The notes under the pieces were generated by a model that was not told where the DNA came from, made no database searches, and was given only the letters and a program-made list of their open reading frames with translations. Shown piece after piece: positions 8,006 to 11,634 of a DNA stretch of 64,000 nucleotides. The stretch is from Longimicrobiales bacterium (lineage in GTDB: Bacteria; Gemmatimonadota; Gemmatimonadetes; Longimicrobiales; RSA9): the NCBI GenBank assembly GCA_036381255.1, contig DASVDG010000114.1, positions 12,326-76,325 of the forward strand, read 5' to 3'. Position numbers and translations under genes: made by a program. The number at the start of each line of letters is the position of its first letter. Position 1 is the stretch's first letter.

Positions 8006-9499
8006 CTACCGCCGCCAGCCCCGCTCCCGCCAACCGCTTCCGGCGCCGGCGCCGGCCGTCGCGATCCGCCCCACCGCCCGCCGCTGCCGCTCCTCGTTCT
8101 CGAGCAGCGCCGCCGCCAGCGCCGCGGCACGCAGCGCCTCCTCGTCCGCAGCGGCCTCCAGCAGCGCCGGGTGCTTGTCGAGGTAGCGGATGTCCAGGCG
8201 GCCCGCCCGGAAATCCGGCTCCTCCATGACTCGCTGGTGGAACGGCGCGCTCGTCTCGACGCCGACGATGCGAAGCTCCGCGAGCGCGCGGCGCATCCGA
8301 TCGATCGCCGCCTCCCGGTCCGCGCCGTGGACGATCAGCTTGCCGAGCAGCGGGTCGTAGAACAGCGACACCTCGAAGCCCTCCGCGATCCCGCCGTCCC
8401 AGCGCACGCCCGGCCCCGCCGGGAGTTGGAACGACTCGATCCGCCCGGTAGACGGCAGGAACCCGTTCCGCGCGTCCTCGCTCGTGATCCGGCACTCGAT
8501 CGCGTGCCCCGTGAGCCGCACGTCCCCCTGCGCGTACGGCAGGCGCTCGCCCGCCGCGATCCGGATCTGCCACTGCACCAGGTCGATCCCCGTCACGAGC
8601 TCCGTGACCGGGTGCTCGACCTGGATCCGCGTGTTCATCTCCAGGAAGTAGAATTCGCCGTCCTGGTACAGGAACTCGATCGTCCCCGCGTTGCGGTAGT
8701 CGACGGCGCGCGCGGCCGCCACCGCGGCTTCGCCCATCCGCTCCCGCAGCTCCGGCGTCAGCGCCGGCGACGGCGCCTCCTCCACCATCTTCTGGTGCCG
8801 CCGCTGGATCGAGCACTCCCGCTCACCCAGGTACAGCGTCGTCCCGTACCCGTCCGCCAGCACCTGGATCTCGATGTGCCGCGGCCCGACCAGGTACTTC
8901 TCGATGTACACGGACGGATCCCCGAACGCCGCCTGCGCCTCCCGCGCCGCCGCTTCGTACGCACGGGCCAGCTCGTCCGGCGAGTCGACGACCCGCATCC
9001 CCTTCCCGCCGCCGCCCGCCGCCGCCTTCAGCAGCACCGGGTACCCGATCTCCTCCGCCCGCACCACCGCCTCCGCCGCGTCCGCCAGCGGCTCCGCCGT
9101 CCCCGGCACCACCGGCACGCCCGCCGCCATCATCCGCCGCCGCGCCTCGGTCTTGTCGCCCATCGCCGTGATCGCCGCCGGCGACGGCCCGACGAACACG
9201 AGCCCCGCGTCCTCGACCGCCTGCGCGAAGTGCGCCCGCTCCGCCAGGAAGCCGTACCCCGGATGGATCGCCTCCGCGCCCGCACGCTTCGCCACCTCGA
9301 TCAGCTTCTCCGCCCGCAGGTAGCTCTCCGACGACGCCGCCGGACCGATCGGGTACGCCTCGTCCGCCTCGAGCACGTGCGGCGCGAGCCGGTCCGCCTC
9401 CGAGTACACGGCGACGGACTTCACGCCCAGCTCGCGGCACGCCCGGATGACGCGCAGCGCGATCTCGCCGCGGTTGGCAATCAGGAGTTTGGTGAACAT
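8006..9499 (-). CDS. accC: biotin carboxylase subunit of acetyl/propionyl-CoA carboxylase
   Basis: 497 aa. MFTKLLIANRGEIALRVIRACRELG, GYPVLLKAAAGGGGKGMR and EMNTRIQVEHPVTE are classical AccC motifs. Confidence 0.9.
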   Translation of the reverse strand: MFTKLLIANRGEIALRVIRACRELGVKSVAVYSEADRLAPHVLEADEAYPIGPAASSESYLRAEKLIEVAKRAGAEAIHPGYGFLAERAHFAQAVEDAGLVFVGPSPAAITAMGDKTEARRRMMAAGVPVVPGTAEPLADAAEAVVRAEEIGYPVLLKAAAGGGGKGMRVVDSPDELARAYEAAAREAQAAFGDPSVYIEKYLVGPRHIEIQVLADGYGTTLYLGERECSIQRRHQKMVEEAPSPALTPELRERMGEAAVAAARAVDYRNAGTIEFLYQDGEFYFLEMNTRIQVEHPVTELVTGIDLVQWQIRIAAGERLPYAQGDVRLTGHAIECRITSEDARNGFLPSTGRIESFQLPAGPGVRWDGGIAEGFEVSLFYDPLLGKLIVHGADREAAIDRMRRALAELRIVGVETSAPFHQRVMEEPDFRAGRLDIRYLDKHPALLEAAADEEALRAAALAAALLENEERQRRAVGRIATAGAGAGSGWRERGWRR

Positions 9500-9541
9500 C
9501 AGTGGTCAGTTGTCAGTGGTCAGTTGTCAGTTGCCAGTTGT
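9500..9541. repeat. tandem heptamer array, 6 units (plus strand: CAGTGGT CAGTTGT CAGTGGT CAGTTGT CAGTTGC CAGTTGT)
   Basis: Read directly. The array begins at the nucleotide next to the accC ATG (9497-9499). Confidence 0.95.
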
Positions 9542-9602
9542 CGGCGTTCTGTGTTCGGCAGCCGGAGGTTCCGCTCGGCGTTGAGACATTTCGAGTCGGA
9601 GT

Positions 9603-9977
9603 TCAGCTCTTCTTTTCTCGCGAAGCGAGAGTGCTGCGCAGGCCGTTGAGCATTCGTCCGATTTCCGCCGTTTGCTCCAGGAGCGAGTGGATCCGCGCGC
9701 TTTCGACGTAGCCCAGGCGCTCCGCTAGTTGGACATGCGTTTCTACCTCCGCGAGGGAGTCGTAGGCGATGGAAAGAAATCGCGCGAATTCTCTTCTACG
9801 CCGCCGGCCCTGTCCTTCCGCGATGTTCGCCGGAACGGATACGGCCGCCCGTCGGAGTTGCAACGCCAGCCCGTACAGCTCGTGCTTCGGGAAGCGCTCG
9901 GCCAACCGGTGGCACTCCACGACCATGTCCCTTGCCCTCTGCCAGACTGCCAGATCGCGATAGCTCCGAATCGGCAC
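9603..9977 (-). CDS. four-helix-bundle protein (23S rRNA intervening-sequence protein family)
   Basis: PIRSYRDLAVWQRARDMVVECHRLAERFPKHELYGLALQLRRAAVSVPANIAEGQGRRRRREF..SIAYDSLAEVETHV matches the family hallmark. Preferred start is GTG 9977 with GGAGG 6 nt upstream (track start 10046). Many A/T-ending codons, unlike the neighbouring genes. Confidence 0.8.
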   Translation of the reverse strand: MPIRSYRDLAVWQRARDMVVECHRLAERFPKHELYGLALQLRRAAVSVPANIAEGQGRRRRREFARFLSIAYDSLAEVETHVQLAERLGYVESARIHSLLEQTAEIGRMLNGLRSTLASREKKS

Positions 9978-10047
9978 CCATCGCCTCCCCCGCCAAGGCA
10001 CCGGATGGATCAGCCCCTTCCCGAATCCACATCCCGGCCGCGACACC

Positions 10048-10075
10048 GACGACTGACGACTGACGACTGACGACC
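10048..10075. repeat. tandem heptamer array, 4 units (plus strand: GACGACT x3, GACGACC); minus strand reads AGTCGTC
   Basis: Read directly. It lies 8 nt from the stop (10084) of the carboxyltransferase gene and is inverted relative to the 9500-9541 array. Confidence 0.9.
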
Positions 10076-10083
10076 GAATCCCC

Positions 10084-11634
<1,551 letters not shown>

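Follow-up and report, generated by a model that had tools for sequence, protein, structure and literature searches.

The locus described here raises the question of what a small gene of the 23S rRNA intervening sequence (IVS) protein family is doing in the middle of a carboxylase operon. It lies in a window of 64,000 nucleotides from a Longimicrobiales bacterium (contig DASVDG010000114.1 of assembly GCA_036381255.1), and all positions are those of this window unless a locus number (L) precedes them. The minus strand carries every gene of the region, according to the open reading frame (ORF) and profile calls on the window. A pccB-like gene for an acyl-CoA carboxyltransferase is followed by the biotin carboxylase gene accC, and 584 nt separate the TAG of the former from the ATG of the latter, with one ORF inside that matches the family. 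An insert of this length had been proposed in a preliminary description made from the letters alone, and the gene calls agree with it. The insert has the same orientation as pccB and accC and spans the distance from stop codon to start codon, and each of its ends is a tandem array of heptamers, here called the 5' arm and the 3' arm. We think it fairly probable that the whole is a guest cassette of the IVS type, hosted by an mRNA in which its own arms loop it out.

Tandem Repeats Finder (TRF) detected an array of period 7 at each end of the insert. The left array (9499-9542) contained 6.3 copies with a score of 67 and reads CAGTGGT/CAGTTGT six times with one CAGTTGC variant; the right array (10048-10074) contained 3.9 copies with 100% matches, namely GACGACT three times and GACGACC. 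TRF reported no other AT-containing array of period 7 with more than 3.3 copies in the 64 kb. The pattern AGTNGTCAGTNGTC with at most one mismatch gave eight matches, all of them within the two arrays, compared with 0.11 expected, and none of 100 shuffles reached eight. The units are inverted: the upstream array reads AGTCGTC, and the downstream array, when reverse-complemented, reads AGT(G/T)GTC. Both TRF and the pattern count therefore bear out the inverted tandem heptamers reported earlier at the two ends. The pairing between them had been put at 3+3 bp per heptamer, and this figure has to be corrected: each heptamer contributes 6 bp out of 7 with a single 1x1 mismatch, which results in an imperfect stem of ~31 bp. 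When a 606-nt transcript was folded, the minimum free energy and centroid structures both closed the whole cassette by a terminal stem. In a second fold 10042-10075 paired with 9491-9528 over ~31 bp, the pair probability being 0.72 on average, and the energy of the arm-arm duplex was -49.7 kcal/mol, compared with -22.3 +/- 4.8 kcal/mol in 500 shuffles, the best of which reached -38.9 kcal/mol.

The predicted stem lies close to both host genes. After the pccB TAG there are 8 nt, consisting of a G and one GGGATTC unit, and then the 5' arm starts at 10075, so that 9 nt lead from the stop codon (10084) to the first pair (10075). At the other end the 3' arm directly adjoins the ATG of accC, which is not preceded by a Shine-Dalgarno sequence, and the accC start codon (9499-9497) is itself paired within the predicted stem base. 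The 3' arm also contains five TGA triplets spaced 7 nt apart, the last of which overlaps the accC ATG (TGATG), and all three frames are therefore closed.

The guest protein is a member of the PF05635/TIGR02436 four-helix-bundle family. It scored 131.4 bits with PF05635 (cut-off 33.8), covering profile positions 1-106 of 106, 129.9 bits with TIGR02436 (cut-off 24) over the full length and 138.9 bits with NF008911 (cut-off 137), and it covered positions 2-123 of the family hidden Markov model (E = 1e-62). At least 7,800 clusters matched it at E <= 1e-10, among the matches listed. The closest solved structure was 2GSC, the XCC0516 protein of Xanthomonas, with five chains (E = 1e-24), and 2RLD, another of the closest structures, has five chains as well. 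An AlphaFold2 (AF2) model with a mean predicted local distance difference test (pLDDT) score of 91.4 showed four helices, and it was superimposed on 2GSC with a template modelling (TM) score of 0.83-0.90 and a root-mean-square deviation of 1.3 A, and on 2RLD with a TM score of 0.78-0.90. 2GSC is described as a homopentameric toroid (PMC4990558), and the guest protein probably forms pentamers as well. The first two profile scores, far above their cut-offs, substantiate the 124-aa IVS-family ORF with a GGAGG of its own that had been recognised by eye, and the codons remarked on there as atypical are reflected in the GC content at third codon positions (GC3), which was 0.74 in the guest ORF compared with 0.98 in pccB and 0.96 in accC. 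The local GC content at the cassette was 58-64%, as against 70-80% close by. Between close homologue pairs the ratio of nonsynonymous to synonymous substitutions (dN/dS) was 0.05-0.08, a sign of strong purifying selection, and because of these values the four-helix-bundle protein appears to be functional elsewhere. The database protein P0001 (147 aa, 99% identical) begins at GTG 10046, the inner edge of the 5' array. This deposited start is probably too far upstream, since the family model (2-123) agrees better with GTG 9977, which has a GGAGG 6 nt before it.

Comparison with relatives shows that the window cassette is an insertion. The sample of pccB-accC junctions consisted of 80 metagenome loci retrieved via the C-terminal part of pccB and 6 loci retrieved via two close pccB homologues. 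In 12 more distant relatives (67-79% identity; L089, L090, L097, L100, L106, L117, L135, L138, L140, L145, L147 and L152) accC comes directly after pccB at a distance of -1 to 21 nt, and these are empty sites. Two close lineages, in which the C-terminal 204 aa of pccB are 91-95% identical, hold a cassette at the same junction, and the guest gene is dead in both and so seems dispensable: in L081-L083 the segment with the invariant SxPxNIAEG has been lost, and in L084-L086 there is a frameshift. The identity between the window and these lineages was 82-89% in the flanks and 61-63% in the cassette. The search for an empty site proposed in the preliminary description was thus successful in the more distant relatives, with decayed cassettes in the close ones, and together with the atypical GC3 this supports its view of a discrete foreign cassette.

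The cassettes at this one site do not share a heptamer. Their units are GGGTCTT/AAGACCC in L082, AGGATTC/GAATCCT in L084 and AGTCGTC/GACRACT in the window, yet the L082 and L084 cassettes also fold with terminal stems despite the differing heptamers. Arms at the same site that differ and are nevertheless self-complementary constitute covariation at the level of the array. The outlying GGGATTC unit next to the pccB stop codon is of the L084 type, which points either to cassettes that were nested or replaced one another or to arrays that turn over fast and in concert. In other lineages the same junction is taken up by single arrays or by hairpins of heptamers or octamers that enclose no gene (L096, L099, L102, L105, L120/L123, L134 and L139). 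In L096, L099, L102, L105 and L139 the arrays stand directly after the pccB stop codon, and in some of the gene-less junction arrays, which belong to unrelated lineages, the stop codon is part of the first unit. Arrays seem to land or grow repeatedly at the pccB-accC junction.

The architecture seen in the window was not restricted to this operon. We analysed 80 genome loci with 83 genes for homologues of 40-62% identity from about 20 phyla, among them Planctomycetota, Acidobacteriota, Chloroflexota, Cyanobacteriota, Proteobacteria, Bacteroidota, Nitrospirota and Patescibacteria. TRF reported 132 period-7 rows in the 77 kb lying at most 300 nt from the gene, compared with 93 in the other 488 kb. 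A period-7 array was located within 250 nt of the gene in 68 of the 83 cases on at least one side and in 49 on both sides. In 44 of these 49 the upstream and downstream units were reverse complements of each other with at most one mismatch (exactly so in 30), whereas ~5 were expected when the partners were shuffled. Such a pair was found for only 2 of 342 control ORFs from the same loci, as against 44 of the 83 family genes. The arms were 90% Watson-Crick complementary over 11-41 nt, mostly 20-40 nt, with a median of 4.4 copies and 31 nt per arm. Read inward from both ends, the consensus of the unit was A (75%), G (90%), G/T (91%) and four variable bases, and arms with five in-phase RGK triplets were the commonest (20 of 48 and 19 of 48 arms).

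The position of the cassettes relative to the host genes was similar to that in the window. A same-strand ORF ended at the 5' arm in 35 of 48 cassettes with a median gap of -1 nt, and a same-strand ORF began soon after the 3' arm in 38 of 48, in 31 of these within 0-20 nt; an ORF on the opposite strand abutted in only 3 of the 48. Conserved rRNA motifs gave no match in any of the 80 loci. The similarity of the proteins correlated with that of the heptamers (Spearman -0.29; none of 2000 Mantel permutations reached the observed value), so that gene and arms tend to be passed on together, but part of this signal may come from host phylogeny. Taken as a whole, the cassettes form a pan-bacterial class, to which the heptamer hairpins without a gene that lie at operon junctions seem to be related. 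Stop triplets were present in the units of 53 of 96 arms when these were read as 3' arms, compared with 13.7 +/- 3.2 for shuffled units. Closure of all frames as a general role of the 3' arm was rejected: just 14 of 48 real 3' arms close three frames and 17 of 48 close none.

Variations on the architecture were observed in several copies. Units of 8 nt occur in L287 (Gemmatirosa kalamazoonensis plasmid 1, 1035-1579), L044, L064 and L070, for example a GAGGGCAG/CTGCCCTC hairpin upstream and CTCCTGCC downstream, and the period is therefore not strictly fixed. Nested or doubled arms, with an array and an inverted array on each side of the gene, are found in L006 (3892-4487), L021 (118-179) and L033 (1855-2360); these look as if a gene-less hairpin had been combined with a cassette. 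In the 5' arms of L008, L011, L016 and L028, whose heptamers differ, the third unit begins with G and carries one or two further changes, as in AGGTGTC AGGTGTC GGGTGCC AGGTGTC, which hints at a position-specific structure inside the arrays.

The features of the window locus are collected in Table 1. The product of the pccB-like gene is 100% identical to P0121, named 'acyl-CoA carboxylase subunit beta [Longimicrobiales bacterium]', and the other neighbours of the cassette encode a TRAM methyltransferase and a binding protein. Neither promoter-like nor terminator-like sites were detected within 9300-10300, Rfam gave no match in 9400-10200, and no rRNA was found in the 64-kb window.

Table 1. Coordinates of the cassette at the pccB-accC junction and of its host genes, in the direction of transcription
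Feature	Position	Strand	Basis and remarks
Acyl-CoA carboxyltransferase (pccB-like), upstream host gene	11634-10084	-	PF01039, E = 1e-204; stop TAG 10086-10084
Single GGGATTC unit outside the main array	10076-10082	-	Junction alignment; equals the AGGATTC/GGGATTC heptamer of the same-site cassette in L084-L086
5' arm, GGTCGTC AGTCGTC AGTCGTC AGTCGTC GGTGTCG	10041-10075	-	TRF, pattern enrichment
Shine-Dalgarno sequence GGAGG	9988-9984	-	6 nt 5' of the guest GTG; read from sequence
Guest gene, intact, 124 aa, S23p / 23S-rRNA-IVS-protein / Avd-like four-helix-bundle	GTG 9977 to TGA 9603	-	Profiles, fold
Spacer of 60 nt from guest stop codon to 3' arm	9602-9543	-	Read from sequence
3' arm, GACAACT GGCAACT GACAACT GACCACT GACAACT GACCACT G	9500-9542	-	TRF, sequence
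3' strand of the predicted terminal stem	9491-9528	-	Pairs with 10042-10075; takes in accC start 9499-9497
Biotin carboxylase accC, downstream host gene	9499-8006	-	TIGR00514, 644 bits vs cut-off 626

Arrays were also frequent where the gene was missing. The homologous loci contained 88 further heptamer arrays at a distance of more than 300 nt from the gene, several of them as close inverted pairs with no gene between, and the gene-less hairpins often have the same heptamer as the local cassette. The array density away from the gene was 8.7 per 100 kb, compared with 4.2 per 100 kb in the pccB loci, which is a weak enrichment. The earlier expectation that such arrays would flank other four-helix-bundle genes was thus met in one direction, starting from the homologues (44/83 vs 2/342), but the reverse association is weak: the gene is nearly always accompanied by arrays, and the arrays are mostly gene-less. 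In 1.14 Mb of viral loci we counted 429 heptamer arrays, which included 92 inverted pairs, 40 of them with loops of 4-60 nt. An AGGNNTC-type scan of the IMG/VR contigs L167-L286 found 146 arrays in 1.14 Mb, and no four-helix-bundle gene was detected near the AGGNNTC arrays of viral contigs in the fetched stretches (0/129). Since viral arrays occur without the gene, arrays are not diagnostic of it. L265 (4460-4581) is among the array-rich viral contigs, which have runs of up to 17 alternating AGGGGTC/AGGACTC units.

The gene family itself was present in 0 of 50,697 phage records and on 30 of 72,556 plasmids, mostly cyanobacterial. On the Anabaena sp. 90 plasmid pANA02 (L288, 835-1677) a cassette separates cas6 from cas4 in a type I-D cas operon. 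Its upstream array, (AGGTGAC/AGGGAAC)n, extends over ~300 nt, and its downstream array, CTGTCAC x4.3, falls within the 5' end of cas4 as annotated, a start that has probably been placed too far upstream. Genes labelled 23S_rRNA_IVP inside cas operons are noted by Zhang et al. (PMC3936711). The published 'CRISPR association' of the family may partly reflect cassette insertion at operon junctions. The window arrays themselves do not form a CRISPR array (clustered repeats of 23-50 nt with unique spacers), a candidate that was discarded: the units are contiguous 7-mers and have no spacers between them.

On the reading that we favour, the inverted AG(G/T)NNNN arrays of the operon transcript would pair into the imperfect stem of ~31 bp and the guest gene would be looped out. 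The stem would hold the pccB stop and the accC start together, with the accC AUG buried in its base, and a ribosome terminating at pccB would melt the stem base and unmask the accC start. The coupling of an uninterrupted pccB-accC junction would thereby be preserved. The length of the stem would also suit RNase III, by analogy with rRNA IVSs, and a cut would free the guest mRNA. Several observations weigh against this interpretation. The mismatches in the arms comprised 36 G:U and 38 A:C, that is, no G:U excess on the sense strand, and this symmetry gives no sign that selection on the sense RNA rather than the DNA level keeps the arms complementary. Because gene-less arrays and array hairpins are much commoner than cassettes, the guest gene may not be the reason why the stem exists. 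The three cassettes at the pccB-accC junction could be independent insertions and not covarying descendants. An RNA stem, moreover, needs neither a 7-nt period nor a conserved AG(G/T), so that something else must impose both; binding of a pentameric protein and a DNA-level mechanism that writes both arms are the candidates.

ORF-bearing IVSs in 23S rRNA are known from Leptospira and Brucella in addition to Coxiella, and the sites of IVSs are helices 9, 25 or 45. The Coxiella IVS, in helix 45, is 428-444 nt long with an S23p ORF and has a terminal stem of 28 bp that RNase III cuts in the middle; its 5' arm holds three to four GACAGAT heptamers, with cleavage at the first repeat (PMC4990558). 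The window cassette and its homologues resemble it in having a PF05635 (S23p) protein in the loop, a similar size (420-660 nt in the cassettes) and tandem heptamers in the stem. As in rRNA IVSs generally, inverted termini close the element by a stem of ~28-31 bp, the insert lies in sense orientation within a host transcript and the ORF is decaying in some lineages. The parallel with rRNA IVSs drawn in the preliminary description is therefore supported by the common protein family, the similar size, the terminal stem and the stem heptamers and RNase III cleavage reported for Coxiella (PMC4990558). The differences are that the window cassette is located in an mRNA, at the stop/start junction of two protein genes and not in a 23S helix, that none of the 80 homologous loci lies in rRNA, and that excision by RNase III has been demonstrated for IVSs, whereas the window cassette is known from sequence and folding. 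A 23S rRNA IVS proper was accordingly dismissed, given the location between pccB and accC and the lack of rRNA in the window. In the searchable literature we found no statement of heptamers as a general IVS feature, the Coxiella paper being alone in noting them, and no open-access text was found that links the arrays to the four-helix-bundle family in general.

The cassette may alternatively be a DNA-level mobile element, with the arrays as terminal inverted repeats or cruciform ends that act in transposition, recombination or template switching, the gene-less hairpins as derivatives resembling MITEs (miniature inverted-repeat transposable elements), and the RNA stem as a by-product. This is possible but not likely, and would be compatible with the looped-out guest cassette, as it concerns the spread of the element and not its function in the transcript. 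The symmetric mismatch spectrum (G:U 36, A:C 38), the foreign GC3 and the outlying GGGATTC unit, whose survival suggests nesting or replacement, all speak for mobility, as do the gene-less hairpins that often use the heptamer of the local cassette and the single junction that is occupied by different cassettes, hairpins or single arrays depending on the lineage. The correlation between protein and heptamer, with like combinations in different phyla, points the same way, but the Mantel signal may be confounded by host phylogeny. Neither a transposase nor a recombinase was found in or beside the cassettes, no target-site duplication was recognised between filled and empty sites, and no near-identical copies were seen. 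Heptamers differ even within one genome (L016/L031; the two copies in L080), which makes a single end-recognising enzyme unlikely, and the counts in phage records (0/50,697) and on plasmids (30/72,556) do not favour such vehicles. MITEs, repetitive extragenic palindromic (REP) sequences and bacterial interspersed mosaic elements (BIMEs) are likewise short, with inverted ends at gene junctions, gene-carrying and gene-less forms and transcription within operons; the cassettes differ from them in that their ends are tandem arrays, the unit sequence varies from copy to copy, no transposase is present, RAYT/TnpA_REP included, and no target-site duplication was seen.

A further explanation, which we regard as doubtful, takes the arrays as binding sites of the encoded protein. 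Each protomer of a pentameric ring would read one AG(G/T) in RNA or DNA that is single-stranded, or the ring would bind the imperfect stem in the way Avd binds its stem-loop; in either case the targets of control would be expression of the protein itself, the downstream gene or the stem. TRAP and HutP likewise recognise NAG triplets at intervals, and the UAG triplets of HutP are separated by 4 nt, a spacing that matches the 7-nt period. The unit consensus of AGK and four variable bases fits such a scheme, and so do the five in-phase RGK triplets that are commonest per arm, the covariation of protein and heptamer and the purifying selection on the protein. The five chains of 2GSC and 2RLD agree with this count, 2GSC being a homopentamer (PMC4990558), and by analogy the Avd pentamer contacts one RNA stem-loop (bioRxiv 10.1101/2023.10.23.563531). 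A count of five is, however, equally expected from a 30-bp stem of 7-mers, octamer versions exist, the arms persist where the gene is dead (L082, L084), and arrays are abundant in contigs without a nearby gene (0/129). A wider proposal, which seems to us unlikely and is put forward tentatively, is that the pentameric four-helix-bundle proteins and the intergenic heptamer arrays, among them the short tandemly repeated repetitive (STRR), GGGNATC and TAACTGA families, are two halves of a single ancient system that spans the bacteria. Each of the five protomers in the ring would then read one AG(G/T) triplet of a series with 7-nt spacing, in RNA or in single-stranded DNA. The cassette would represent the autonomous form, with the far commoner gene-less arrays and hairpins of operon junctions as its non-autonomous or trans-acting targets; ORF-bearing rRNA IVSs would be the same element in rRNA and the Avd protein of diversity-generating retroelements (DGRs) a domesticated branch.

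Two other explanations are highly improbable. That the arrays are coincidental simple-sequence repeats, heptamer microsatellites or G-quadruplex (G4) repeats that accumulate in intergenic DNA, would account for their wide occurrence without the gene, and arrays of this kind have been described as G4-forming or possibly regulatory (PMC4692102 and PMC4679880). It is contradicted by the control counts, with pairs around 44 of 83 genes as against 2 of 342 control ORFs and ~5 expected with shuffled partners, and by the fixed polarity of the arms, AGK inward from both ends. G-quadruplex repeats, defined as at least four tracts of at least three G, were also rejected for the window. Its AGTCGTC/AGTKGTC units, GACAACT included, lack G-tracts, and G4 formation therefore cannot be the general principle, although many other cassettes do have G-tracts. 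The guest protein could also be an Avd that works with a reverse transcriptase, as a remnant or component of a DGR. Its fold matches bAvd, the Avd pentamer of the Bordetella phage DGR (4DWL, 8UB7), with TM scores of 0.77-0.89 at 11-14% identity, and there were weak matches to PF22296 and NF033474. These scores stayed below the cut-offs (26.6 bits vs 40 and 36.2 bits vs 80, respectively), the cassette lies between the metabolic genes pccB and accC, no gene for a reverse transcriptase was found less than 3 kb away, and a cassette of only 584 nt leaves no room for template and variable repeats; this candidate was set aside. In the DGR ribonucleoprotein, five Avd protomers all touch one RNA stem-loop, with flipped-out bases in the crevices between protomers (bioRxiv 10.1101/2023.10.23.563531). 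The cassettes share with this system the four-helix-bundle fold and the number five (the Avd pentamer, the five chains each of 2GSC and 2RLD); comparable on the side of Avd are its binding to structured RNA beside its own gene and a long-range duplex that brackets the template segment. They differ in the sub-cut-off model scores, in the low sequence identity and in the lack of a nearby reverse transcriptase or pair of template and variable repeats.

Intergenic heptamer families have been described before. Rehm et al. reported GGGNATC arrays in Xanthomonas and Nostoc in which four units are preferred and of which 70-75 pairs are convergent, and read them as G-quadruplex formers (PMC4692102). 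MacGregor described TAACTGA arrays in Beggiatoaceae and cyanobacteria that end 1 nt before start codons without a Shine-Dalgarno sequence, and treated them as possible translational regulators (PMC4679880). Cyanobacterial STRR, GGGNATC and TAACTGA arrays resemble the cassette arms in being tandem 7-mers of ~4 units between co-directional genes. The convergent GGGNATC pairs, 70-75 of them in Xanthomonas, are a further likeness, and so is the (C/A)AACTGA-type 3' arm of the window that adjoins the accC ATG, which has no Shine-Dalgarno sequence. Unlike GGGNATC, the window heptamers contain no G-tracts, and the texts of PMC4692102 and PMC4679880 draw no connection to a four-helix-bundle gene. A GGGAATC x4 array overlaps the annotated start of XCC0516, the family member with a crystal structure (2GSC), as listed in supplementary file 2 of PMC4692102. 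In Xanthomonas campestris XCC0516 adjoins the biotin carboxyl carrier gene bccP (accB) at XCC0516/XCC0517, and this is a second carboxylase operon that hosts a cassette, a point on which PMC4692102 does not remark.

For genome annotation these results mean that some annotated start codons fall within arrays; P0001 and the cas4 of pANA02 are examples. The cassette makes several things testable, namely processing by RNase III, coupling across a looped-out insert and binding of the protein to its own arms. The observations suggest a small gene that moves together with its self-complementary heptamer arms and inserts precisely where one operon gene stops and the next starts. Three puzzles, the function of the S23p family, the origin of ORF-bearing rRNA IVSs and the intergenic heptamer repeats, may thus be one.

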